Source: a virus. Taken from it: 64,000 nt of DNA. Both the position numbers and the translations under genes were made by a program. This document shows, piece by piece, positions 1,799 to 46,346 of this stretch (the stretch's first letter is position 1; each line of letters begins with the position of its first letter). Location of the stretch: IMG/VR virus record IMGVR_UViG_3300013131_000024, positions 45,858 through 109,857 of that record, one strand, 5' to 3'. The notes beneath the pieces were generated by a model. That model was not told where the DNA came from. It was given only the letters and a program-made list of their open reading frames with translations, and did not search any database.

Positions 1799-2368
1799 GT
1801 GTCCAAAAAGTTCGACGATTTTAATGCCGAAGATCGCATCGACATCAAATTACTGGAAAATTCCATACATTTTCTCACAGGTGAAATAGACCAAGAATCT
1901 GTGGATAAATGCATCAAATGGATAACCTACGAAAATTTAGATACTCGATCAGAAAAAATTCTTACTCTTTACATCAATTCCACAGGCGGAGATTTGTATT
2001 CTGCTTTTGCCTTGATTGATGTAATGAAAAACAGTGAACATCCTGTTAGAACTATCGCTATAGGTGCTGTGATGAGTGCGGCATTTTTGATCGCAGCATC
2101 AGGTACCAAAGGACAGAGATTCGCTGCTCGCAATGTCAGTTATATGTGCCACCAATTTACGGAAAATGTTGATGCCAAATATCATGATATTAAGGCCGCG
2201 ATGAAAGGTAATGAAATGTGTAATGATATGATGGTTGCTGTATTGAAGGAAGCTACGGGGTTAGCACCTAGCATTATCAAGAAAAAACTACTGCCCGCCA
2301 GTGATGTGTATCTAACTGCTGATGAAGCTGTAGAATTAAAGATCGCTGACAATATTTTAGAAAGATAA
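1799..2368 (+). CDS. clpP: ClpP-family serine protease proteolytic subunit
   Basis: LYINSTGG, MSAA (catalytic Ser) and CHQ (His) motifs; GTG start after AAGGAG (ORF is open from 1766). Confidence 0.9.
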   Translation: MSKKFDDFNAEDRIDIKLLENSIHFLTGEIDQESVDKCIKWITYENLDTRSEKILTLYINSTGGDLYSAFALIDVMKNSEHPVRTIAIGAVMSAAFLIAASGTKGQRFAARNVSYMCHQFTENVDAKYHDIKAAMKGNEMCNDMMVAVLKEATGLAPSIIKKKLLPASDVYLTADEAVELKIADNILER

Positions 2369-2370
2369 AC

Positions 2371-2616
2371 ATGAGCAAAGTAATAGCCATAGACGGCAAA
2401 GCTAAAAAGGATCAAGAGCGGAAAGAATCTATGTTAGAAGTATTGAAAGTCATAGAACAGCAGATAGAAGAAGGCAATATCAAAGAGTTCGTGGCCTGCT
2501 CTATGAACGAAGATGGCAAAGCGCAGGTGCATGCTAGCTGCTTAGATCTCGTAGGCGGCGTGGGCATGTTTGAAGTTGGCAAGCACTTACTGATCGAAAG
2601 CGACAGAATGTTGTAA
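2371..2616 (+). CDS. hypothetical protein
   Basis: 81 aa ORF directly after clpP. Confidence 0.75.
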   Translation: MSKVIAIDGKAKKDQERKESMLEVLKVIEQQIEEGNIKEFVACSMNEDGKAQVHASCLDLVGGVGMFEVGKHLLIESDRML

Positions 2617-2645
2617 AAATGCCACATTATATGGGCATTTTTTCA

Positions 2646-2674
2646 TTGACAAATAAATAAACAGACAATACAAT
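2646..2674 (+). promoter_or_regulatory. sigma70-type promoter P1
   Basis: TTGACA-17 nt-TACAAT. Confidence 0.8.
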
Positions 2675-2743
2675 AGATACATGGTTAGTTGATGTTGTTG
2701 AAAAAGCAACAGCTCTTAATTTTTCCAAAAAGAAAAATAGGGG

Positions 2744-2772
2744 TTGACAACAGAACTAAATATTTGTATACT
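2744..2772 (+). promoter_or_regulatory. sigma70-type promoter P2
   Basis: TTGACA-17 nt-TATACT. Confidence 0.8.
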
Positions 2773-2823
2773 TAGATCATGCGTTGGAAATAGCGCAGAA
2801 ATTTTAAAGGAAAAACAAAGCAA

Positions 2824-2964
2824 ATGAAAACAGTAGGATCGTTATCAAGACATTATTGTATAGCCAAACAGGTAGGCATGCCCACCTCTTGGTCTGCGAT
2901 TAGTCTGTTCAATAATGATCGTACACCAGAGCTATGTCAGGGGTCCATGGAGACGATGAGTTAA
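2824..2964 (+). CDS. putative attenuator leader peptide (46 aa, contains all 20 amino acids)
   Basis: MKTVGSLSRHYCIAKQVGMPTSWSAISLFNNDRTPELCQGSMETMS; AAGGA upstream; last codons overlap the antiterminator 5' arm. Confidence 0.65.
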   Translation: MKTVGSLSRHYCIAKQVGMPTSWSAISLFNNDRTPELCQGSMETMS

Positions 2965-2996
2965 CGTAAAAATAACTCAAACTTCAAAAGGACCCC
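2940..2996 (+). promoter_or_regulatory. putative antiterminator hairpin
   Basis: GGGGTCC/GGACCCC, TGGAG/CTTCA and TGAGTTA/TAACTCA; shares 2992-2996 with the terminator. Confidence 0.7.
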
Positions 2997-3026
2997 AGGA
3001 CTAAACACCCTGGGGTTTTTGTTTTT
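2992..3026 (+). terminator. intrinsic terminator (attenuator)
   Basis: ACCCCAGG-9 nt-CCTGGGGT followed by TTTTGTTTTT. Confidence 0.85.
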
Positions 3027-3038
3027 ATAAGGAGAACT

Positions 3039-3215
3039 ATGCAGTATAATGAAATTGAATTTGATAAGTTGAGTAAGAGAATCGTTGAACAGGCTTACGC
3101 TTCTGCTGGTCAGGTACTAGACGAAGAGCAGAAACGCAAACTTATTCAAGATAAGTTTGACCGAGCCCGTGCCATGCACGAAGCTCAACAGAAGAGTCCA
3201 ATCTACGAAGATTAA
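3039..3215 (+). CDS. 58 aa hypothetical protein (MQYNEIEFDKLSKRIVEQAY...), below ORF-track cutoff
   Basis: TAAGGAG SD; open frame to TAA at 3213-3215. Confidence 0.75.
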   Translation: MQYNEIEFDKLSKRIVEQAYASAGQVLDEEQKRKLIQDKFDRARAMHEAQQKSPIYED

Positions 3216-3220
3216 GACTC

Positions 3221-3445
3221 GAGTGTGGATGGGAAACGAGGTCCCAGCGACACACTGTAATAAAAACGTAAACGGGCGGCCTAGTGGATGGAATCCCTCT
3301 TGTGGGACTAAAAATACTAGCGTAATTAAGCATTCCCCATTCGCCCTGCGACGGCGTCTAAAATCATAGAGGAGAATGCTTAATTACACACTCTCCTACT
3401 CCATTTGACAAGGAGGACAGGTTGACATAGTCTACGGAGAGTGTT
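3221..3445 (+). ncRNA. candidate structured non-coding RNA region
   Basis: Consecutive helices AGTGTG/CACACT, CTAGT/ACTAG, 14-bp 3322-3335/3374-3387 and ACACTCTCC/GGAGAGTGT; no credible ORF. Confidence 0.45.
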
Positions 3446-3450
3446 ATAAT
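3422..3450 (+). promoter_or_regulatory. sigma70 consensus promoter before tRNA-Tyr
   Basis: TTGACA-17-TATAAT with TGn extension. Confidence 0.8.
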
Positions 3451-3458
3451 ATGTCTTT

Positions 3459-3545
3459 GGAGGTGTGTGCCGAGCGGCGAAGGCAAGTGACTGTAAATCA
3501 CCCACATCAGAAACACCGTAGGTTCGATTCCTACCGCCTCCACCA
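3459..3545 (+). tRNA. tRNA-Tyr(GTA)
   Basis: cloverleaf, long V arm, CCA. Confidence 0.95.
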
Positions 3546-3551
3546 AAATTT

Positions 3552-3626
3552 GGTCCTATAGTTTATCGGTTAGAATAATGGCCTGTCACGCCGTAGGGAC
3601 GAGTTCGATTCTCGTTGGGACCGCCA
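3552..3626 (+). tRNA. tRNA-Asp(GTC)
   Basis: cloverleaf, CCA. Confidence 0.95.
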
Positions 3627-3635
3627 AAGTTTTAT

Positions 3636-3713
3636 TCCGGGATACCGTTCTAGGTGAGGCGGGTCTGACTGTTAATCAGAAATAGATTGGTTCGAATCCA
3701 ATTCCCGGAGCCA
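3636..3713 (+). tRNA. tRNA-Asn(GTT), atypical D arm
   Basis: acceptor, anticodon and T arms; GCCA end. Confidence 0.9.
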
Positions 3714-3766
3714 TTTGAAAGGTAGAGTGATAAATAAATATGTAAAATATTTTAAGGCTCTACCAT

Positions 3767-4210
3767 ATGAATTATAAGGGAACAAAAGACAAGACTTATG
3801 TCTGTCAGCATTGTAAAACAGAGTTTGGTTTTAAAGGTTATAGTAGCAATCATAAATTTTGCAGTTTAGATTGTTCTTATGCTTATCAATCAGCTCGAAA
3901 AGAAAGTTTAAAAGAGCATCGATATCAAAAATGGTTATCCGGAAAAGATATTGGTGTTAAAAATCCTCGTAAATTAATTAGAGATTTTTTAATTATACGC
4001 GATGGATATAGATGTAGTTGTTGTGGAATTGATAGTTGGAATGGTAAAGAAATAACACTCTGGACAGATCATATCGACGGAGATGCTACTAATAATCACC
4101 CAACTAACTTTAGATTAATCTGTCCTAACTGCGATAGCCAATCAGATACGTTTGGCGGCAAAAATTACGGTAAAGGAAGAAAATCTAGAGGTTTACCACA
4201 ATATGGTTAA
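3767..4210 (+). CDS. HNH homing endonuclease
   Basis: CSCC...DHIDGDATNNHPTNFRLICPNC HNH motif; N-terminal CxxC/CSxxC zinc motif; free-standing in tRNA array. Confidence 0.9.
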   Translation: MNYKGTKDKTYVCQHCKTEFGFKGYSSNHKFCSLDCSYAYQSARKESLKEHRYQKWLSGKDIGVKNPRKLIRDFLIIRDGYRCSCCGIDSWNGKEITLWTDHIDGDATNNHPTNFRLICPNCDSQSDTFGGKNYGKGRKSRGLPQYG

Positions 4211-4221
4211 GTAAAATTAAT

Positions 4222-4296
4222 GCACCGTTCGTCTATCGGTTAGGACACCCGCCTTTCACGCAGGTAAGAGGAGTTCGATTCTCCTACGGTGTACCA
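4222..4296 (+). tRNA. tRNA-Glu(TTC)
   Basis: cloverleaf, CCA. Confidence 0.93.
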
Positions 4297-4303
4297 GTTT
4301 TAT

Positions 4304-4379
4304 GCGGCATTAGTACAGTTGGTAGTACATCTGCTTGCCAAGCAGAAGGTCACCAGTTCGAGCCTGGTATGCCGCTCCA
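4304..4379 (+). tRNA. tRNA-Gly(GCC)
   Basis: cloverleaf, TCCA. Confidence 0.95.
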
Positions 4380-4387
4380 AAGTTTTT

Positions 4388-4486
4388 GCCTCTGTAGCTT
4401 AATGGTAAAGAAGGGAGCTTATACCTCCCCAAAGCACAGGCCAGATAAGCCTGAGTGTGCAGGTTCGAGTCCTGCCAGAGGCACCA
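4388..4486 (+). tRNA. tRNA with TAT (Ile) anticodon and long variable arm
   Basis: GGGAG-CTTATAC-CTCCC anticodon arm; ~29 nt V region; 7/5 acceptor/T stems; ACCA. Confidence 0.85.
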
Positions 4487-4492
4487 GTTAAT

Positions 4493-4569
4493 GGCTCCGT
4501 AGTTCAGTCCGGCAGAACGTTGGTCTCCAAAACCAAATGTCGGTGGTTCAAATCCATCCGGGGTCGCCA
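4493..4569 (+). tRNA. tRNA-Trp(CCA)
   Basis: cloverleaf, CCA. Confidence 0.95.
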
Positions 4570-4575
4570 AATGAT

Positions 4576-4652
4576 GTGAGGGTGCCAGAGAGGCCTAATG
4601 GCGCAGTCTGCAAAACTGTTGTTCGTCGGTTCGAATCCGACTCCTCACTCCA
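4576..4652 (+). tRNA. tRNA-Cys(GCA)
   Basis: cloverleaf, TCCA. Confidence 0.95.
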
Positions 4653-4656
4653 GAAT

Positions 4657-4737
4657 GCCCCTATGGCCAAATTGGTAAAGGCGGCTCTCTCAAAAGGAGT
4701 GTCATAACTATCGGTTCGAATCCGATTAGGGGCACCA
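4657..4737 (+). tRNA. tRNA-Leu(CAA), short V arm
   Basis: cloverleaf, ACCA. Confidence 0.9.
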
Positions 4738-4745
4738 AAGATTAT

Positions 4746-4835
4746 GGAAGTGTGGCAGAGCCCGGCTTAATGCACCTGTCTTGAAAACAGACGATCCGAA
4801 AGGGTCCGTGAGTTCGAATCTCACCGCTTCCACCA
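4746..4835 (+). tRNA. tRNA-Ser(TGA)
   Basis: cloverleaf, long V arm. Confidence 0.95.
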
Positions 4836-4839
4836 AATT

Positions 4840-4913
4840 GCCCGGATAGTTAAATGGTATAACGGTCGCTTGATAAGCGATTATTCCAAGTTCAATTCTT
4901 GGTCTGGGCACCA
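4840..4913 (+). tRNA. tRNA-Ile(GAT)
   Basis: cloverleaf, ACCA. Confidence 0.93.
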
Positions 4914-5047
4914 ACCTTAAGGAGAACGCAAAATGGGGCGGTCGCAGTTTTACTCTTGCTGGTAGTATTGATATATTATATTGACAAAAATTTAAAATAG
5001 GAGAATGTTATGGAAAGTGATAAATCTGACAAAGGTCCCAAACCTTT

Positions 5048-5122
5048 GGGGGTGTGGTGAAATGGTATCACAGCAGACTTTTAATCTGCCAATTTCGGGT
5101 TCGAGTCCCGGCGCCCCTACCA
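5048..5122 (+). tRNA. tRNA-Lys(TTT)
   Basis: cloverleaf, ACCA. Confidence 0.93.
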
Positions 5123-5188
5123 TATAAAAACACATTCTCTGCTGGGCATGAATCAGATTCTCTAGCGGGTATGAATGTGTTTCTATAT

Positions 5189-5263
5189 GGTAATGTAGCA
5201 TAACGGTAGTGCAGCACCTTCATACGGTGCCCAGTGAAAGTTCGACTCTTTCCATTACCACCA
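5189..5263 (+). tRNA. tRNA-Met(CAT), elongator (Ile2 not excluded)
   Basis: cloverleaf, CAT anticodon. Confidence 0.9.
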
Positions 5264-5278
5264 GGATTAAATAAGTGT

Positions 5279-5524
5279 ATGAAAGAGCTACTGAAAAATC
5301 TGCCGCAGCTATTGGCTGCGATGCCAGAGCTAGTAAAGTACTTAAAATACATTCCAATCCTCATGATCCTCGCGGGCCTTGGCTACGGAGTAGTCTACTT
5401 CGTCCAGAATCGCAAGGATCCATATCAATGCGTTAACAATCACGTCTTTGAACAGTTGAGATTAGACAGCGATGTCTATGTGTTCAAAGGCGGAACTTGT
5501 ATCGATGCCAAAGATTTAAAATAA
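5279..5524 (+). CDS. small membrane protein
   Basis: hydrophobic segment IPILMILAGLGYGVVYFV; TAAATA 5 nt upstream of ATG. Confidence 0.75.
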   Translation: MKELLKNLPQLLAAMPELVKYLKYIPILMILAGLGYGVVYFVQNRKDPYQCVNNHVFEQLRLDSDVYVFKGGTCIDAKDLK

Positions 5525-5529
5525 ACTGT

Positions 5530-5603
5530 TGGGGTGTAGTGTAATGGTAACACCACAGACTTTGACTCTGTAATTCTAGGTTCGAGCCCTAGCACCCCTG
5601 CCA
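5530..5603 (+). tRNA. tRNA-Gln(TTG)
   Basis: cloverleaf, GCCA. Confidence 0.93.
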
Positions 5604-5604
5604 T

Positions 5605-5678
5605 GCTCTTATAGTTAAATGGCAGAACACATCCTTGGTAAGGATGCGATACAAGTTCGATTCTTGTTAGGAGCACCA
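5605..5678 (+). tRNA. tRNA-Thr(GGT)
   Basis: cloverleaf, CCA. Confidence 0.95.
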
Positions 5679-5682
5679 TATT

Positions 5683-5757
5683 CGGCCTGTAGCTCAGTGG
5701 AAGAGTTCTGGTCTTCGAAACCAGCAGTCGGGAGTTCGAATCTCTCCAGGCCGGCCA
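5683..5757 (+). tRNA. tRNA-Arg(TCG)
   Basis: cloverleaf, GCCA. Confidence 0.93.
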
Positions 5758-5772
5758 TTTAAGGAGAAAACT

Positions 5773-5979
5773 ATGAAACCAACTTTATTCAAGAATCGTT
5801 TCAATAACGAGCGTTTTATCTGCGACAACCCTCGCTTGACCGAAAACATCGACGGTGTTGAATATGTTGTGGTCCATCGTCCTAATGAGCATCGTGAATT
5901 TAAAATGCGTCGTGATGCACTAGAAAAAATTAATGCGCCTGTAGCTCAGTCGGACCAGAGCACTACGCTACGAACGTAG
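5773..5979 (+). CDS. hypothetical protein whose 3' end runs into tRNA-Arg(ACG)
   Basis: TAAGGAG SD; 68 aa. Confidence 0.7.
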   Translation: MKPTLFKNRFNNERFICDNPRLTENIDGVEYVVVHRPNEHREFKMRRDALEKINAPVAQSDQSTTLRT

Positions 5980-6012
5980 GGGTCGGAGGTTCGAATCCTT
6001 CCAGGCGTGCCA
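5935..6012 (+). tRNA. tRNA-Arg(ACG)
   Basis: cloverleaf, GCCA. Confidence 0.95.
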
Positions 6013-6018
6013 AACAAT

Positions 6019-6094
6019 GGTGTCCTTAATGTAGTGGCCTGCATACTAGTCTGTGAAACTGGAAGTACCGGATCGATACCGGTAGGACACCCCA
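6019..6094 (+). tRNA. tRNA-His(GTG)
   Basis: G-1/C73 pair; GTG anticodon; atypical T loop ATCGATA. Confidence 0.9.
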
Positions 6095-6103
6095 AAAGAA
6101 CAA

Positions 6104-7042
6104 TTAAAGATTTAAACAAAATTCTATTCGAATTTCTTTGTTGATATGAGATACAAACAATTCATGTATATTAGAGGGCGGATCAAGTATTGTTCCTAAA
6201 GGTAGCTCTAACGGTAAATTACTTGGCAATCTTTCGTAAGATTTACACCACGATTGAAATCTTTTACTTGCATATAATCGTTTTCTTGTATAATCTATAT
6301 CTATGGTAATACCGCCATTAGATCCGAGACGTCCTGTACAATCAAACTCGTTAGGATTATCTTCATCGTAAAATGATCGAAGAACACTTTTACCTAGAAT
6401 GGATTGATCTAACAGCACCAAGTATTGATAAACTGAATATTTTTCATAATCATAATTTGCCAAAAAATCTTCTTGATCAAATTCTAACCAATTGTCAAAT
6501 TGCAAATATCTATCAGTGGGCGTTATGTCAAAACTGGTAAATGGATATTTGGTTAAAGCATAATTTTTATTATCTGTAATAGTAATTTTTTCTAAAAGAT
6601 GAACTGAATCATTGATTAAATTTATCAAGGAAAACCATTGATTATAATCTATGAATTCTGGAATTGTGAATTTAGAATTATATACATTTTCCACAGATTT
6701 ATTTAGGTGCAGAGTATCTCTAGCGAATAAAGCATTGTAAACAAAGAATCTGTGTAATTCATTTAGAATATTTTGATCGTAATTAAATTCTGTGGGAATC
6801 GTAGTAGGAAATTTTAAACCAAATCTTTCTAATTCTGATAAGGCAAATTGTATAAACTTCCAAGATTGTATAATTTGAGATTCGTGTATATAATATTCTT
6901 CTAATGATGCAAAATCTTTTTTACATTCATAAGATTGTTTTTTGCTATTAAAAAAATTAAACCATTTAAAATGCACTTTGTGATCTGTGAATATTCGAAT
7001 CGCAATGTGTTGATCATTAAGAAAATGTAATTTTAAAAACAT
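6104..7042 (-). CDS. hypothetical AT-rich protein, antisense within tRNA array
   Basis: 312 aa ORF; TAAATA 4 nt before ATG. Confidence 0.8.
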   Translation of the reverse strand: MFLKLHFLNDQHIAIRIFTDHKVHFKWFNFFNSKKQSYECKKDFASLEEYYIHESQIIQSWKFIQFALSELERFGLKFPTTIPTEFNYDQNILNELHRFFVYNALFARDTLHLNKSVENVYNSKFTIPEFIDYNQWFSLINLINDSVHLLEKITITDNKNYALTKYPFTSFDITPTDRYLQFDNWLEFDQEDFLANYDYEKYSVYQYLVLLDQSILGKSVLRSFYDEDNPNEFDCTGRLGSNGGITIDIDYTRKRLYASKRFQSWCKSYERLPSNLPLELPLGTILDPPSNIHELFVSHINKEIRIEFCLNL

Positions 7043-7065
7043 AAATTATTTAATATCATCGCTTC

Positions 7066-7141
7066 GCCAACTTAGCTGATGTGGTCATAGCGGCGGTCTG
7101 AAGAACCGTGGAAAGACGTTCGATTCGTCTAGTTGGCACCA
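7066..7141 (+). tRNA. tRNA-Phe(GAA)
   Basis: cloverleaf, CCA. Confidence 0.95.
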
Positions 7142-7144
7142 CAT

Positions 7145-7222
7145 GCGGATGTGATGGAATTTGGTATACATATCAGACTTAAAATCTGAGTTCTGAGGGT
7201 TCGAATCCCTCCATCCGCACCA
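7145..7222 (+). tRNA. tRNA-Leu(TAA), no long V arm
   Basis: Leu-type D loop; 5-nt V loop. Confidence 0.9.
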
Positions 7223-7227
7223 AACAT

Positions 7228-7299
7228 GCCTCTGCCGATGGAGCGGTGCCAGGTCTTCTAAACCAGGTTATGGGAGTTCGAATCTCTCCAGAGGCGCCA
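7228..7299 (+). tRNA. tRNA-Arg(TCT), reduced D arm
   Basis: acceptor and T arm canonical; CTTCTAA loop. Confidence 0.8.
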
Positions 7300-7307
7300 T
7301 ATATCAG

Positions 7308-7336
7308 TTGACAAAGCATAGAATAGACTATATAAT
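7308..7336 (+). promoter_or_regulatory. sigma70 consensus promoter
   Basis: TTGACA-17-TATAAT. Confidence 0.85.
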
Positions 7337-7369
7337 ATACTTTGTTCATTAAAAATTTCTAGTTGTTAT

Positions 7370-7397
7370 GCCCCGGTGGTGGAATGGTAGACACGCT
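7370..7397 (+). pseudogene. 5' remnant of a tRNA-Leu (acceptor strand + D arm)
   Basis: GCCCCGG-TG-GTGGAATGGTAGACAC-GCT, then stops abruptly. Confidence 0.75.
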
Positions 7398-7425
7398 TTT
7401 CTGTGTGTTTAGCATAAATAAATGT

Positions 7426-7869
7426 ATGAAAAACATTTATGAATACATTTCACTCCCGAGGGTTGAAAGACAGTCTCATCTCAAATTGGATGAGCCGTGT
7501 CTAGAAAGAGGAGCAGGTAGTTATTATTTCAAAGGGCTTTTAGCTCATTGTTTAGATACTACAGTTCCTACAGGACATAAGATACATTTATGTCATGCTT
7601 GTCATAACGGTGCTTGTGGTAATCCCAATCATATGTATTGGGGTACAGCACAAGAAAATCGTTTAGATCAAGTTGAAAATAACGGCAAAACAATTTGGGA
7701 GAGAACTGTCGAAAAACACGGCTTAGAAAAAGCGAAAGCTATGAACAAACGTGTTGGAAATAAAAATGGTTCTGGCAATAAGGGTAAACCTAAAAGCGAG
7801 GAACATAAAGCAAAAATTGCCGCAAACCGTAAAGGTGGGCGACAAAAGAAACATGCGGACGTGATGTAA
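7426..7869 (+). CDS. HNH/zinc-binding-loop homing endonuclease with NUMOD3-like motif
   Basis: HLCHACHNGACGNPNHMYWGTAQENRLD; GKPKSEEHKAKIA. Confidence 0.85.
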   Translation: MKNIYEYISLPRVERQSHLKLDEPCLERGAGSYYFKGLLAHCLDTTVPTGHKIHLCHACHNGACGNPNHMYWGTAQENRLDQVENNGKTIWERTVEKHGLEKAKAMNKRVGNKNGSGNKGKPKSEEHKAKIAANRKGGRQKKHADVM

Positions 7870-7938
7870 CTGGTAGCCATGCGAGTCTTAGAAGCTCGTG
7901 CCTTGTGCGTGTGAGTTCGAGTCTCACCGTCCGCACCA
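7855..7938 (+). tRNA. tRNA-Leu(TAG)
   Basis: cloverleaf with V arm, ACCA; overlaps endonuclease stop codon. Confidence 0.93.
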
Positions 7939-7958
7939 AGTTTGCCCTATGGACTTAA

Positions 7959-7974
7959 CCGACCTGGGGCACCA
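7959..7974 (+). pseudogene. 3' remnant of the disrupted tRNA-Leu
   Basis: CCGAC-CTGGGGC-ACCA; CTGGGGC pairs with GCCCCGG at 7370. Confidence 0.7.
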
Positions 7975-8139
7975 TTAAAAAATAGCATTAGCGGGTATCG
8001 CTTGTGGACGCACAGGCTCACGAAGATTAGGGCCATCTACTTCTTCTGAAAAAACCGTGGACAATGGCTTATGAGGAGAATCGAACTCCACTCAGAAATC
8101 CGTCCCATCCCGTAGGGTGTAATGTTATTCTTTAATGGT
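7971..8139 (+). ncRNA. candidate small structured RNA closed by ~19-bp stem
   Basis: ACCATTAAA-A-AATAGCATTA pairs with TAATGTTATT-C-TTTAATGGT; GC-richer non-coding interior. Confidence 0.5.
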
Positions 8140-8149
8140 AAAGTTTTTT

Positions 8150-8228
8150 CCGGGTGTAGCTTAGTCTGGCTTAAAGCGCCTGCTTTGGGAGCAGGAGATC
8201 GTGAGTTCGAATCCCACTTCCCGGACCA
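8150..8228 (+). tRNA. tRNA-Pro(TGG)
   Basis: cloverleaf, ACCA. Confidence 0.92.
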
Positions 8229-8234
8229 GTAAAT

Positions 8235-8309
8235 GCATCGTTAGTTCAGCGGTAGAACGTCGTCCTTACAAGGCGAATGTCAGTGGTTCGACTCCATTAC
8301 GATGCACCA
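8235..8309 (+). tRNA. tRNA-Val(TAC)
   Basis: cloverleaf, ACCA. Confidence 0.95.
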
Positions 8310-8314
8310 ATGCC

Positions 8315-8406
8315 GGAAGGATGGCTGAGAGGCTTAAGGCAGCAGGTTGCTAACCTGTCGATTCGGGTAACTGGGTCCGAGGGTTCGAATCCCTCTTCTT
8401 CCACCA
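8315..8406 (+). tRNA. tRNA-Ser(GCT)
   Basis: cloverleaf, long V arm. Confidence 0.95.
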
Positions 8407-8425
8407 ATTTTAAAAAGGAAACTAA

Positions 8426-8605
8426 ATGTTAAGACCAACCGCAAATTACAAGATGTCCAAACCTACCAAAACTATGTTGGCATCGAGAAGATTTAATTCA
8501 GAAACACAAAGACATGACTGGAAAAGATCTATGATTCAGGCTGAATTAGCTGCTCTTATTCAACCTAAAAGAGAAAAAGGTCGTCGAGAGAACAAAGGTG
8601 AATAA
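8426..8605 (+). CDS. 59 aa basic hypothetical protein (MLRPTANYKMSK...)
   Basis: AAGGA SD; open frame; below ORF-track cutoff. Confidence 0.7.
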   Translation: MLRPTANYKMSKPTKTMLASRRFNSETQRHDWKRSMIQAELAALIQPKREKGRRENKGE

Positions 8606-8606
8606 C

Positions 8607-8789
8607 ATGGAAGATTCTCAAAATATTAAAAGAACCGGAACTTGTGGTTGTGGGCGATCACCAACTGGTGATTGTATTGGTTGGCACAGTCTATCTGAAG
8701 ATATGTATCAACATCAAAAACTGCTTTGGATAGAAGAAGAAATGCGTAAAGATCAGGAAGCAGCACACTTAAAGGAGACTGGCAGATGA
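8607..8789 (+). CDS. CDGSH-like iron-sulfur domain small protein
   Basis: CGCGRSPTGDCIGWH resembles the CDGSH motif C-x-C-x2-S-x4/5-C-D-G-x-H. Confidence 0.6.
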   Translation: MEDSQNIKRTGTCGCGRSPTGDCIGWHSLSEDMYQHQKLLWIEEEMRKDQEAAHLKETGR

Positions 8790-8983
8790 GAGATAAACTG
8801 ATAGATGCATTGAGAGTTCATTTTGCAGGTAATTTGTTAAAACATAAAATGAATGTAGAAGTTATGTTAAATAATCCAATCGCAATCCATGATCATACTG
8901 ATTGGATGACTGCTATCGAATCGGAGATTGCACAAATAGCAGAATACGAAGATAAATTAGAAGTATTGAATAAACATTTTTAA
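8786..8983 (+). CDS. hypothetical phage protein
   Basis: ATGA overlap; 65 aa. Confidence 0.75.
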   Translation: MRDKLIDALRVHFAGNLLKHKMNVEVMLNNPIAIHDHTDWMTAIESEIAQIAEYEDKLEVLNKHF

Positions 8984-8986
8984 ATT

Positions 8987-9060
8987 GGGGGATTAGTTAA
9001 ATGGGATAACATCGGCTTTGCAAGCCGAGATTGAGAGTTCGATTCTCTCATCCTCCACCA
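8987..9060 (+). tRNA. tRNA-Ala(TGC)
   Basis: G3.U70 pair; cloverleaf. Confidence 0.95.
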
Positions 9061-9064
9061 ATAT

Positions 9065-9138
9065 GCCCTTTTAGTATAATGGTAATACAGTGGATTTGTA
9101 ATCCTCTGATGGCAGTTCGATTCTGTCAAGGGGCACCA
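9065..9138 (+). tRNA. tRNA-Thr(TGT)
   Basis: cloverleaf, CCA. Confidence 0.93.
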
Positions 9139-9154
9139 AGATTACCAAAATGTC

Positions 9155-9182
9155 TTGACACAGACACAAAACAGTGTATAAT
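9155..9182 (+). promoter_or_regulatory. sigma70-type promoter
   Basis: TTGACA-16-TATAAT. Confidence 0.75.
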
Positions 9183-9189
9183 AAGTTTT

Positions 9190-9458
9190 GTTGTGTAGCA
9201 ATACACAACCGGTGAAGTGAAAGGTAGATGAGGATAGACGCCTAGTATGGTTTCATACCATACGAACTTATCTGGCAAAGACGACTTGAAAACGTCTCCG
9301 TGCTTGAGTGAGCTGATCCAAATATCTTTAACTAGACTGTCAATTGCTGATCGGAAATATTCAGGTCTCTGTAGCCTGTCTATTGCACGTTGTCCAGACC
9401 GACGATATCGCACAATAGGTCTTGTCAATTGTCCGGTCTATTACTTGACCTTTCATCG
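9190..9458 (+). ncRNA. candidate ~270-nt structured RNA / long 5' leader
   Basis: GNRA-capped 8-bp hairpin; long-range GTGAAAGGT/ACCTTTCAT and ATAGAC/GTCTAT; internal hairpins; repeated GTCWATT. Confidence 0.55.
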
Positions 9459-9492
9459 ATCCGTCATTATAATTGTAAAAAGAGAGACACAA

Positions 9493-10065
9493 ATGAATAT
9501 CACACTACGCAAAGCAAATGCAGTACAAAACAGCATCAATGATGCACTAAAAAACATTAAGGTTGATCTTAATGTTGAGATTAACGAGTTTCAAAATATC
9601 GAAGATGTTATTGGCAAAGCCAATAACACTTTGGTCGAAAATGATGCACGTCGTCAAAAGTTGACTATGGCTTTGTACAATATCCGTGCTTTAGTAGGTA
9701 CTGCAAATGCTGCGAGTGGAATTGACACTGCGCTGGCCAAGGCAGCGTTCATCGATAAACGTATTGGCCAATTAGAGCAATTGGCGAGCTCTACTGAGAT
9801 GACTTCTTTAGAAATCATTAAAGGCAAGATTGAAAAGATCAAAAGTCTCAAGGACGAAGCTCGTAGCCGTATCTATGGCTATGGAGACACGGTAACAACT
9901 TCTGTTCTCAGCAAAGAACAGATCGCACAGGCCAAATCAGAAATCCTTAATCTGAAAAAGCAAAAGCAAAAGCTCAACGATGAGATCCTTGAGCTGAATA
10001 TCAAAACCGATATTCCATTATCAGATGATACTGTAGAATTACTACAAACAGAAGGATTACTATGA
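9493..10065 (+). CDS. coiled-coil hypothetical phage protein (MNITLRKANAVQ...)
   Basis: coding-like composition from ATG 9493; the upstream in-frame extension overlaps structured RNA. Confidence 0.8.
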   Translation: MNITLRKANAVQNSINDALKNIKVDLNVEINEFQNIEDVIGKANNTLVENDARRQKLTMALYNIRALVGTANAASGIDTALAKAAFIDKRIGQLEQLASSTEMTSLEIIKGKIEKIKSLKDEARSRIYGYGDTVTTSVLSKEQIAQAKSEILNLKKQKQKLNDEILELNIKTDIPLSDDTVELLQTEGLL

Positions 10066-10071
10066 TATTGC

Positions 10072-10145
10072 CGCGGGTTATAGAAAAGGCATCTTACCAG
10101 TCTCATAAGCTGGAGTTGGGGGTTCGAGTCCCTCACCCGCAACCA
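10072..10145 (+). tRNA. tRNA-Met(CAT), initiator-like
   Basis: C1.A72 mismatch; CAT anticodon; lacks the three anticodon-stem G-C pairs. Confidence 0.85.
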
Positions 10146-10174
10146 GTTATAGATAAAGATACTTATTTGAATAA

Positions 10175-10663
10175 ATGAATATCGCAATAATAATCGATTG
10201 TTGGAAAGATACACCAACTACATTGCATCATATAATTCTCTCTAAAATATTTAGATCGACAAGATTCGTTTATTTAAATATTAAGAAATTTTTAAGTTCA
10301 GATTTAATAGATGTAATAATTATTTCTTCCTACGACGACAAAGATACTACTCCTACTATTTTAAACATAGACAAGAAAAAATTCTTTTTTTTACACGAAG
10401 AACAATTAATAGAATTTTTAAAAAATAATTCAGTTAAAAATATCTATATGTGTGGTTGTGCCTGGGATAGTTGTGTAAGAGATCGTCCTCTTGGTTATTT
10501 GAATGTCTATAAAATTATTAATTCATTGAACTTAGATATTAGTGTTTTAGTAAAATATAACTGTGTTAAAAACTTAGATGACACATATTTTGTAAAATCA
10601 AAAAATGATGACTGGGTAAAAACCAGTGTAAAAAATATTTTTAAATACTATCCAAAATGTTAA
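10175..10663 (+). CDS. hypothetical AT-rich protein (isochorismatase-like fold possible)
   Basis: IIIDCW...YMCGCAWDSCVRD resembles cysteine-hydrolase motifs. Confidence 0.65.
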   Translation: MNIAIIIDCWKDTPTTLHHIILSKIFRSTRFVYLNIKKFLSSDLIDVIIISSYDDKDTTPTILNIDKKKFFFLHEEQLIEFLKNNSVKNIYMCGCAWDSCVRDRPLGYLNVYKIINSLNLDISVLVKYNCVKNLDDTYFVKSKNDDWVKTSVKNIFKYYPKC

Positions 10664-10670
10664 AGAATAT

Positions 10671-10740
10671 GTGGGAGTAGCTCGGTTGGTAGAGCATTTG
10701 CCTTTCAAGCAAGATGTCGTGAGTTCAAGTCTCGCAACCA
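10671..10740 (+). pseudogene. degenerate copy of tRNA-Gly(TCC) with TTC anticodon and no 3' acceptor strand
   Basis: strong similarity to 10838-10913; ends in CGCAACCA. Confidence 0.75.
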
Positions 10741-10745
10741 ATTAG

Positions 10746-10820
10746 CTCGCTGTAGTTCAATGGACAGAACGATTCTCTCCTAAAGAATAAATCCAGGTTC
10801 GATTCCCGGTGGCGAGGCCA
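10746..10820 (+). tRNA. tRNA-Arg(CCT)
   Basis: cloverleaf, GCCA. Confidence 0.93.
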
Positions 10821-10837
10821 GTGTTAAATAGTTTTAT

Positions 10838-10913
10838 GCGGGTGTAGCTCAGTTGGTAGAGCACTTGCCTTCCAAGCAAGATGTCGAGAGTTCGAGACTC
10901 TTCGCCCGCTCCA
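10838..10913 (+). tRNA. tRNA-Gly(TCC)
   Basis: cloverleaf, TCCA. Confidence 0.95.
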
Positions 10914-10918
10914 AATAT

Positions 10919-11494
10919 ATGCAAGTAATAGACTATAACGATACATTCCGTAAGTTTGATTTCAGTTCTGTTATAACAGCGGCTGATAACGATGTTGCTA
11001 TAGGAATCGTGAAAAATATCATCGCAGATGGCAATTATTTTACCAACAGTCCAAAATATCAAACTAAAGAAAACATCTTCAAAAGAAAAGAAACTGTATG
11101 GTTGAAATACCGTATGAGTTTTTTGTTTTCAGTTTTTATGTACCTAGGTCGTGAAGTAAAAGTTTCTAACATGATGGCCTGGTCATTCATGACTAATTTA
11201 GAGGGTGCCGAAGACCGTGAAAAATTATGGCACCATCATTGGCATCCTTCCAGACCAGATGCTAAGATGATGAGTGGAGTTTTTTATCTGCATATCCCCG
11301 ACGATGTCAAAGACAGAGATTATGCAGGCACAGAAATGGCACCAAACGGCATAGATGCAGATGGAAAGTTTTTTGTCCGCCCTGCAGACTATCAATGGCT
11401 TATATATCCCAGCGATCAATGGCATAGACCCGGCATCGTCCAAAGTAACCAATACAGATTCGTGTTGGCAGCAGACGTAGAATATTACGATTGA
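10919..11494 (+). CDS. putative 2OG-Fe(II) oxygenase
   Basis: WHHHWH...SGVFYL...YPSDQWH...RFVLAAD DSBH pattern; start placed after tRNA-Gly. Confidence 0.75.
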   Translation: MQVIDYNDTFRKFDFSSVITAADNDVAIGIVKNIIADGNYFTNSPKYQTKENIFKRKETVWLKYRMSFLFSVFMYLGREVKVSNMMAWSFMTNLEGAEDREKLWHHHWHPSRPDAKMMSGVFYLHIPDDVKDRDYAGTEMAPNGIDADGKFFVRPADYQWLIYPSDQWHRPGIVQSNQYRFVLAADVEYYD

Positions 11495-11519
11495 CAACAG
11501 CACTTTTTGGTGCTATAAT
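11491..11519 (+). promoter_or_regulatory. sigma70 consensus promoter
   Basis: TTGACA-17-TATAAT, TGn. Confidence 0.85.
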
Positions 11520-11540
11520 ACAACATCAAGGAGTGAAAAA

Positions 11541-12080
11541 ATGAACCCGTGGATCCAAAATGTATCTCTCAGCGATGTTAAGAAAGGAAATCATATCCAT
11601 GCCGGCATTAACAGTATGCTGATTCAAATTGTAGATCCAGGTATGGAGTTTCCTACACCTAGTTATCAGTTTCGAGAGATTCATCAATTCTTGTTTCTTG
11701 ATGTTGAAGAAAAGGACGAAGTTTTGGAAGAAGAGATGCGTTGCAGTCAGACTCAGGCAGATCAGCTTGTCTCTCTGCTACACAGAGCATTCGAGAATCG
11801 TATGAACGTTGTTGTTCATTGTGTAGCAGGTGTTTGTCGTTCGGGTGCTGTCTGCGAAGTAGGTGTAATGATGGGCTTCCGTGATACCGAAGTATTTCGT
11901 TCGCCTAATCTGCTAGTCAAGCACAAGATGATGAAGTGCCTAGGTTGGACCTACGACGAGCAGGAGCCTCACACAATTAATGGGGCTCCTGTCGAAGAAG
12001 ATTGGACCAACGACAACGAAAAGGTTTTTACCTTAGCAGCAGCTCGTCGTGAGCGCAGACAGCGTGAAGGAGATATCTAA
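11541..12080 (+). CDS. dual-specificity/protein-tyrosine phosphatase family protein
   Basis: HCVAGVCRS (HCx5R) P-loop. Confidence 0.85.
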   Translation: MNPWIQNVSLSDVKKGNHIHAGINSMLIQIVDPGMEFPTPSYQFREIHQFLFLDVEEKDEVLEEEMRCSQTQADQLVSLLHRAFENRMNVVVHCVAGVCRSGAVCEVGVMMGFRDTEVFRSPNLLVKHKMMKCLGWTYDEQEPHTINGAPVEEDWTNDNEKVFTLAAARRERRQREGDI

Positions 12081-45503: not shown

Positions 45504-46346
45504 ATGACAGACAAAGCAAAACTAGAAACGTTGGCCAATCTTCTTAAAGAAATATTATCAGAGGGTCAAACTATAGATTCTGCAGAATTTCCTTACGTTA
45601 TTATCAAAGGAGATATTGAGGGCAAGGGTATTCTATGGTCTGGACAAGGACATAACAAGCAATTTATTTTTGCAAATGACCCGGATAGATTCTTCATATC
45701 TGAAAATATTGATTTAAACAAAGGTAAATGTATATCTATCAATAACATTAAACTCATAGACGAAAAAGAATTAGGATCATCAATAACTAAAAGTAATTTA
45801 CGAGAAGTTGGTAGACTTAAAGGTCTGATTGTAGACGGAGGTTTGAGCGTTAATCAATATCTTGTTTACGATGCCAATACAGATAGATTAGGTATAGGCA
45901 CTGATCAACCAAAAGCATCTCTAAGTATAGTAGATCAAAATATAGAATTATTATTGGGTTCGTCTGAACCCAATGTAGCAGTAATAGGATCATATAATTT
46001 TGTAGATTTAGATCTTGTCACTGATAATACTCCTAGAATCAAAATCCAAGCAGGCGGAAATATAGTTTTAGGAAATGCATCGGCCGGTGATATAAAAGTT
46101 ACGGTGCTAGGAAAACTAGGTGTAAATGTATCTAATCCCGATCCACGAAGTGCATTACATGTTAATGGTGCTATTAAATTTAATGACAAATTGCATCTAA
46201 ATGGTAGAGAACCGCCTACGAGTGGTGCATTTAATGAGGGAGATATTGTTTGGAACACTGATCCGCAACCAAACAAGTTCGTTGGTTGGGTATGTACTAA
46301 ATCTGGAAATCCTGGTTTGTGGAATGGATTCGGAAGAATTGAATAA
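45504..46346 (+). CDS. virion structural / fibre-like protein (paralog of 44401)
   Basis: collinear similarity to upstream gene. Confidence 0.7.
   Translation: MTDKAKLETLANLLKEILSEGQTIDSAEFPYVIIKGDIEGKGILWSGQGHNKQFIFANDPDRFFISENIDLNKGKCISINNIKLIDEKELGSSITKSNLREVGRLKGLIVDGGLSVNQYLVYDANTDRLGIGTDQPKASLSIVDQNIELLLGSSEPNVAVIGSYNFVDLDLVTDNTPRIKIQAGGNIVLGNASAGDIKVTVLGKLGVNVSNPDPRSALHVNGAIKFNDKLHLNGREPPTSGAFNEGDIVWNTDPQPNKFVGWVCTKSGNPGLWNGFGRIE

Follow-up and report, generated by a model that had tools for sequence, protein, structure and literature searches.

The reasons for which phages carry tRNA genes, and the means by which they control these genes, have been under debate for decades. We analyzed a 64,000-nucleotide (nt) stretch of viral DNA (the window; positions 45,858 to 109,857 of IMG/VR record IMGVR_UViG_3300013131_000024) in which a 46-codon open reading frame (ORF) at 2824–2964, an antiterminator hairpin at 2940–2996 that overlaps the end of this ORF, and an intrinsic terminator at 2993–3026 lie ahead of a tRNA array. 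The ORF, the switch, the promoters, and the array are all on the plus strand. Comparison with about 100 divergent relatives revealed the ORF, a constraint on its composition, both hairpins, their mutual exclusivity, and a link to tRNA arrays, and it makes it probable that the element is a ribosome-mediated leader-peptide transcription attenuator heading the phage tRNA array. The leader would be written so that every amino acid and most tRNA species of the array are needed at least once, and transcription toward the phage tRNA genes would probably rise whenever any codon is decoded too slowly. An earlier note, made from the letters of the window, had proposed an attenuator of this kind; the relatives support that interpretation, and the alignment that had been set beforehand as a check found the codon-diverse ORF and the covarying alternative hairpins to be conserved. 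The source is a 109.9-kb IMG/VR virus contig with a CheckV completeness of 31%, and hence a fragment of a giant phage.

Leader ORF in the window and its relatives

The leader promoter (TTGACA-17 nt-TATACT; 2744–2772) agrees with the sigma-70 consensus at 11/12 positions, and its GGTTGAC shows no variation across seven relatives. Transcription is predicted to start near 2779, giving a 5′ untranslated region (2779–2823) with a small 5′ hairpin (2780–2797) and a weak A-rich ribosome-binding region. The ORF begins with ATG and ends with TAA (2962–2964). As the earlier note had reported, it contains all 20 amino acids by codon 36, Glu being the last to appear, and 34 distinct codons. The note's caution that such a composition may be due to chance holds for the window alone, where all 20 amino acids occur in 2.6% of the 46-codon segments from the phage's own long ORFs and in 3/54 short six-frame ORFs; the all-20 content of this single leader is not above chance. 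At least 34 distinct codons were found in 0.5% of the 46-codon segments from long ORFs (mean 27.3). The leader codons match 25 of the 28 anticodon species of the array, while random segments match 18.5 ± 2.1 and only 0.1% of them reach 25.

Six related contigs were recruited via their flanking proteins, and the whole intergenic region could be aligned. In all seven sequences, including the window, the ORF is kept at 46–48 codons with in-frame indels. A motif scan of viral contigs found the terminator motif in at least 119 of them, and all family counts given in this text (102 leaders, 88 distinct sequences, 79–103 loci) are among the matches listed in that scan. An ATG-initiated ORF of at least 40 codons was present in 100 of 103 usable upstream segments and ends 19–32 nt upstream of the terminator motif. 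The 102 distinct leaders that were analyzed are mostly 42–52 codons long, vary by in-frame indels, and end inside the three-tier antiterminator hairpin. The ATG is invariant and the frame is open in the approximately 100 divergent sequences.

All 20 amino acids are present in 83 of the 102 leaders, 19 in 17, and 18 in 2, against 4–16% all-20 leaders under the null models. Specifically, 3.7% would be expected from the pooled composition of the family and 11.8% from a uniform composition, and column shuffling, which retains the positional preferences, gave 11–16% as compared with the 82% observed for all sequences. None of 2000 column shuffles attained the observed value. In non-redundant subsets, the all-20 fraction was 73% (<70% identity), 70% (<50%), and 57% (<40%, 23 representatives). 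No single amino acid is enriched, and the rare amino acids occur in about one copy each. Cys is present as a single copy in 84/102 leaders, yet it is spread across 28 alignment columns; likewise, the single His of 86 leaders is spread across 21 columns. An internal (non-initiator) Met, which is relevant only if elongator tRNA-Met is to be used, occurs in 97% of the leaders. On average, 35.7 distinct codons are found per 46.6-codon leader. These values argue that the leader composition is under selection for presence and not for position, a rare kind of selection whose target is the composition of the peptide and not its sequence. Because such a constraint makes sense only for a translated sequence, we infer that the leader ORF is translated.

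The sequence of the peptide itself has changed considerably. Identity per alignment column averages 31%, and Met1 and Trp23 are the only near-invariant residues, although a motif (AKQxG..W..NDRTPE) is recognizable. This conserved motif, together with the 2.6% of the phage's own segments that hold all 20 amino acids by chance, could be taken to mean that the ORF simply encodes a small phage protein, is served by a promoter and a terminator of its own, and carries over its 3′ end a hairpin that stabilizes the mRNA. We consider this very unlikely, given the low column identity, a composition that is kept while positions wander, a shared base that covaries in two exclusive helices (see below), and an invariable placement before tRNA arrays. 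In addition, an AlphaFold2 prediction with 98 sequences gave a predicted local distance difference test score (pLDDT) of 60.7 and a predicted template modeling score (pTM) of 0.12 with no secondary structure, and the peptide has no relative in Pfam, PHROG, or the PDB, where a profile search gave only a coat protein at E = 0.55. A helix-turn-helix assignment of the peptide (IAKQVG..SWSAIS..) was rejected, with HTH_19 matched in 1/98 sequences at E = 0.011 and no Pfam or PHROG match. A search of a protein database with the leader peptide returned 4 clusters, which is uninformative on family size because the ORF is rarely called by gene callers.

The segment GAUCGY ACA CCA GAG, encoding D-R-T-P-E (2914–2932 and the same place in relatives), shows approximately 90% nucleotide conservation. 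Its GAUCG pairs at the base of a rod-shaped hairpin predicted within the ORF body (codons 4–34; 2833–2924), while ACACCAGAG, likewise conserved in its nucleotides, has no predicted partner and may be a pause signal or have a role in the nascent peptide. Trp23 and D-R-T-P-E are also the most conserved residues, as might be expected if W...NDRTPE acted as a nascent-peptide arrest sequence of the TnaC, ErmCL, or SecM type that stalls the ribosome on a ligand or state and thereby sets the choice between terminator and antiterminator. We give such an arrest switch little credence: a ribosome halted on D-R-T-P-E or beyond it would sit over the 5′ arm of the antiterminator and favor termination, adding no inducible state, and there is no need for all 20 amino acids in an arrest peptide. 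Moreover, GAUCG and UGG also lie within conserved helices of the rod hairpin.

Antiterminator and terminator

The leader RNA (2779–3030) folds far better than shuffled sequences (z = −4.55), and its minimum-energy fold is the antiterminator form. The outermost helix P1 pairs GGGGTCC (2940–2946, codons 39–41) with GGACCCC (2990–2996), and the inner helices (2948–2986) are P2 (2948–2952/2982–2986) and P3 (2957–2963/2973–2979), the 5′ strand of P3 containing the final sense codon together with the UA of the UAA stop. This is the three-segment hairpin that the earlier note had described, with the last codons of the ORF in its 5′ arm. The terminator lies between the leader ORF and the downstream genes and consists of a 7-bp GC-rich stem (CCCCAGG 2993–2999/CCTGGGG 3009–3015) with a 9-nt loop and a U-run (3016–3026); it was overlooked by the scan tool only because of the loop length. 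The ORF thus overlaps the switch both through codons 39–41 in the 5′ arm and through its stop in P3, and bases 2993–2996 are shared by P1 and the terminator stem, so that the two hairpins exclude each other as the earlier note had proposed.

The antiterminator is present in all 102 leaders (88 distinct sequences), with a mean stability of −23.5 kcal/mol as compared with −11.4 kcal/mol for the terminator. The apical helices have 48 distinct sequences that retain complementarity, and inner helices formed from native 5′ and 3′ halves (−9.8 kcal/mol) are more stable than those of chimeras between relatives (−5.9 kcal/mol). A plain MAFFT alignment of the 88 antiterminators yielded no structure in RNAalifold, the helix registers being misaligned, and this approach was replaced by per-sequence folds, the chimera control, and a covariance-model alignment. 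In the latter, which is fitted to the structure, 91.7% of the antiterminator cells are paired, as compared with 77% after shuffling and 27–59% in slid controls; compensatory changes are seen at 12 of the 18 antiterminator pairs, with a covariation score of 0.36 versus 0.16.

Base 2996, the only variable base among those shared, pairs with 2940 in the antiterminator as G:C in 43, A:U in 38, and G:U in 3 sequences. In the terminator it is paired in 88/88 sequences (C:G 45, U:G 22, U:A 21), and C-A was found in 0/88 at this pair though the search pattern permitted a C-A mismatch. Covariation with both partners, the strongest of the observations on the RNA switch, indicates that both mutually exclusive structures are maintained. 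The stop codon, which is UAA in 84/88 and UAG in 4/88 sequences, falls within the 5′ strand of P3, mostly 14–18 nt past the 5′ arm and mostly 21–27 nt before the 3′ arm, so that a terminating ribosome would cover P2, P3, and also the edge of P1. Within P3, the partners of the last sense codon covary with it. As a rule, the last new amino acid appears 3 codons ahead of the codon that opens the 5′ arm, at about the last site at which a ribosome could stall without covering the arm.

The full leader RNA folds into the antiterminator form in 83/101 relatives, which suggests that the default without translation is read-through. A trp-style 1:2 pairing, in which the 5′ arm would have an upstream partner, was considered and not adopted, as the same full-length folds use the antiterminator. 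The rod hairpin of the ORF body has a family mean z of −2.9 against codon shuffles; by analogy with trp, it is possibly an RNA polymerase pause or synchronizing structure that is unwound by the translating ribosome. This extensive structure, including the rod hairpin and the z value of 2779–3030, and the control of RNA genes linked to tRNA would also suit a protein-independent RNA switch, T-box-like or of another riboswitch type, that binds tRNA or a metabolite and to which the ORF is incidental. However, an Rfam scan of 2000–12000 at E ≤1 detected only tRNA-related families and gave no match within 2600–3450, with the T-box family included in the search. The invariant ATG, the open frame, and the in-frame indels in about 100 divergent sequences, a compositional constraint that is sensible only for a translated sequence, and a stop codon at a fixed place in P3 also speak against such a switch, and we regard it as extremely unlikely.

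Link to tRNA arrays

A tRNA array on the same strand follows the switch in 79/79 loci with at least 1.5 kb of downstream sequence, and it begins 169–1198 nt past the terminator. A sigma-70-like promoter (at least 10/12) was found upstream of the leader ATG in 98/101 relatives. In about 24 of these 98 (e.g., L014 and L128), the −10 box ends 6–11 nt before the leader ATG, so that the mRNA of the leader would be of a leaderless or nearly leaderless type. No promoter-like site separates the terminator from the first tRNA in 58/93 relatives, while about 14/93, including the window (9 nt), have a consensus promoter within approximately 20 nt (7–22 nt) of the first tRNA.

In the window, the first gene past the switch is a 58-amino-acid ORF (3039–3215) with a strong Shine-Dalgarno sequence (AAGGAG). 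It has relatives in 71 database clusters and belongs to no Pfam or PHROG family; an ORF of like size and position is found downstream of the switch in roughly 60% of the relatives. The following non-coding stretch of about 200 nt (3216–3421) is structured (z = −2.99; −64.1 kcal/mol), with a 14-bp stem (3322–3335/3373–3386), and has neither an Rfam match nor a credible ORF. A consensus promoter (12/12 with extended TG; 3422–3450) ends 9 nt upstream of the first tRNA. The array itself (3459–10913), in which small ORFs are interspersed, comprises 29 genes called by ARAGORN and two matches to the Rfam tRNA model only, and it covers all 20 amino acids. The downstream gene, the structured RNA, and the array noted earlier were thus confirmed, with 29–31 tRNA genes. 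No terminator-like site was found on the plus strand within 3027–4500, and read-through transcripts should therefore reach the tRNAs. The earlier note had also pointed out that the promoter at 3422–3450 could drive the tRNAs separately, and its position bears this out: in this window, the switch would add to the transcription of the array and not gate it.

The two additional matches to the Rfam tRNA model are located at 4388–4483 (59 bits) and 10671–10743 (45 bits), and neither was called by ARAGORN. The former is 96 nt long, which is unusual for a tRNA.

Proposed mechanism

In the mechanism that we propose, the promoter at 2744–2772 would produce the leader RNA. A ribosome moving at normal speed would be on codons 37–46 and the UAA, over the 5′ arm of P1, P2, and P3, while the polymerase makes 2990–3026. 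The antiterminator would then be unable to close, the weaker terminator (2993–3015 and the U-run) would form, and transcription would stop. If the ribosome is instead held at codons 2 to approximately 36 for want of a usable aminoacyl-tRNA, or has not been loaded, the three-tier antiterminator (2940–2996) would form first and, being the stronger structure, sequester 2993–2996. The polymerase would continue through the 58-amino-acid gene and the structured RNA to the tRNA genes. This would amount to a feedback in which phage tRNA synthesis goes up with slow decoding and down with adequate decoding. The timing of the ribosome relative to the polymerase is deduced from the arrangement of these elements, as is the natural trigger. 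Loss or cleavage of host tRNA during infection would be the likely trigger, which is plausible from work on phage tRNAs and tRNA-targeting host defenses (PMC10264068, PMC11555353). Starvation is a further candidate.

A more specific version of the attenuator, to which we give about an even chance, is that the leader takes a roll-call of the tRNAs that the phage itself encodes: at least one codon before the switch would stand for each amino acid, for elongator Met, for the AUA-reading Ile, and for most anticodon species of the array, and a shortage of any single tRNA would switch on the whole replacement set. The shortage could come from host anticodon nucleases, from the loss of host tRNA in infection, or from a mismatch in codon usage. 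Where a leader lacks an amino acid, the part of the array that was seen lacks the corresponding tRNA in 5/8 cases versus 84/612 otherwise (Fisher p = 0.002), a comparison that involves 8 cases and incompletely seen arrays.

The same architecture might instead gauge the overall capacity for translation, i.e., ribosome availability, the speed of elongation and release, or the coupling to polymerase, and not single tRNAs; the all-20 composition would then represent average decoding or be a by-product. As naked RNA defaults to the antiterminator, any loss of translation would switch the element on. In every split codon family, both halves are over-represented relative to expectation, including those of Ala, Pro, and Val, each of which has one tRNA in the array of the window. 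The codon-box splits were for this reason discarded as a test of isoacceptor sensing, and they suggest general codon diversity over a strict tRNA list. The mycobacterial whiB7 attenuator likewise responds to many translation inhibitors (PMC10274678). On the other hand, a capacity gauge needs neither one-copy rare amino acids with positional turnover nor an internal Met, and it would not predict that gaps in the leader coincide with gaps among the array tRNAs. We judge this alternative unlikely; it is a close variant of tRNA-specific sensing, and the two are separable by experiment only.

Several observations weigh against the attenuator described above or restrict its reach. The Shine-Dalgarno sequence of the leader (AAGGA, 11 nt upstream of the ATG) is weak and distant from the start codon. 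Peptide conservation (K-Q-x-G, W, and D-R) partly overlaps RNA helices. With a strict estimate of the ribosome footprint, only 38/101 leaders include all 20 amino acids within the portion in which a stalled ribosome would not cover the 5′ arm, and the last residue of D-R-T-P-E falls on the limit. The fit of the covariation alignment to the structure, together with the definition of the terminator by the search pattern, calls for caution in reading those scores. The sequences are mutually related, and the counts are inflated relative to independent events. The leader-roster comparison is limited by its 8 cases and by the incomplete view of the arrays. Finally, with a 12/12 promoter 9 nt before the first tRNA, the switch is not the sole control of the array in this window and may mainly control the 58-amino-acid gene.

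Upstream region and occurrence in sequencing data

Another sigma-70-like promoter (TTGACA-17 nt-TACAAT, 11/12; 2646–2674), which is kept in the closest relatives, lies 98 nt upstream of the leader promoter, so that two promoters lead into the ORF as the earlier note had it. It is followed by a hairpin (2693–2711) and a U-rich tract (2693–2725 overall), and the region 2646–2745 may represent tandem promoters or give rise to a very short transcript. A 200-amino-acid ClpP-like protein, encoded at 1766–2368 two genes before the switch with an 81-amino-acid ORF in between, matches phage head-maturation protease families (phrog_94, E = 2e-26).

In a search of sequencing runs, the stretch was found nearly whole in DNA runs of lake-water metagenomes only. 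A blastn search (distant mode) with 2600–3460 against 50,697 phage records gave no match, and hence no cultured relative. Runs labeled as RNA contained short contig pieces of relatives, including one metatranscriptome contig that corresponds to 2802–2926 of a relative; as run contigs show neither transcript ends, strand, nor level, they have no bearing on expression or termination.

Comparison with known systems

Among the systems described so far, the attenuator in the upstream ORF (uORF) of whiB7 (wblC) in mycobacteria and other Actinobacteria comes closest, as an analogue in logic only. There, as proposed for the phage leader, a translated uORF of mixed composition is followed by an antiterminator/terminator pair, and a stall at any represented codon leads to read-through, one codon per amino acid being sufficient (PMC10274678). 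In the whiB7 uORF, a single Trp codon confers sensing of Trp, and loss of the start codon results in constitutive read-through, in agreement with the antiterminator default predicted for the phage leader (PMC10274678). The whiB7 uORF is enriched in Ala, is variable, and lacks several amino acids in M. tuberculosis (PMC10274678), whereas the phage leader has all 20 amino acids at about one copy each and Ala accounts for 5.7% of the leader residues. The output also differs, being a drug-resistance transcription factor for whiB7 and tRNA genes for the phage. The two have no sequence relationship, one being cellular and the other a phage element, and the features that define the whiB7/wblC family, i.e., a position upstream of whiB7/wblC and an Ala-enriched uORF, are absent from the window, where the switch is followed by the 58-amino-acid ORF and the tRNAs.

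The leaders of amino-acid operons (trpL, hisL, pheL, leuL, and the multivalent thrL and ilvGMEDA leaders) carry one to three regulatory amino acids in runs, and their cargo is the biosynthesis of these amino acids. The phage element resembles them in having a promoter, a short ORF, an overlapping antiterminator, and an intrinsic terminator, in that a ribosome at the end of the ORF would prevent formation of the antiterminator, and in that the RNA of the ORF may form a pause hairpin. The leader is not enriched for a regulated amino acid and no biosynthetic cargo follows; sensing would extend to every amino acid, and tRNA genes form the cargo. Furthermore, untranslated trp leader RNA terminates through 1:2 and 3:4 pairing, whereas the naked phage RNA is predicted to favor read-through.

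A T-box binds one uncharged tRNA directly via its specifier codon and T-box motif, without a ribosome. Like the switch proposed for the phage, it lets the state of tRNA decide between terminator and antiterminator ahead of genes related to translation; the phage element differs in being an ORF, and no match to the T-box covariance model was found.

The long tRNA array (trn operon) of Anabaena sp. PCC 7120 is induced under translational stress (PMC8421152) and has a repressor, TrcR (PMC10272220). As proposed for the phage, an accessory array of many tRNAs is kept low and turned on when translation is impaired (PMC8421152). The Anabaena array is, however, controlled at the promoter level through direct repeats bound by the repressor (PMC8421152; PMC10272220), PMC8421152 makes no mention of a leader, attenuator, or terminator, and the array is cellular or carried on a megaplasmid. 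In the literature, we found no published account of leader-peptide attenuation of tRNA genes and no description of a cis-regulatory logic for phage tRNA arrays. Within leader-peptide attenuation, the new aspects suggested by the present comparison are a pan-amino-acid sensor and tRNA genes as cargo.

Biological significance

Phage tRNAs have been tied to the escape from tRNA-cleaving host defenses (PMC10264068, PMC11555353). If the proposed attenuator is correct, the phage would have a simple feedback loop in which tRNAs are made when decoding falters, and the demand-driven view of phage tRNAs would become testable with reporters. A compact, portable part of approximately 250 nt that reports the shortage of any aminoacyl-tRNA could also serve synthetic biology. 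Should the leader indeed be a roll-call of the phage's own tRNAs, the element would constitute a self-adjusting circuit for counter-defense and tRNA supply that is common to a large clade of freshwater giant phages.

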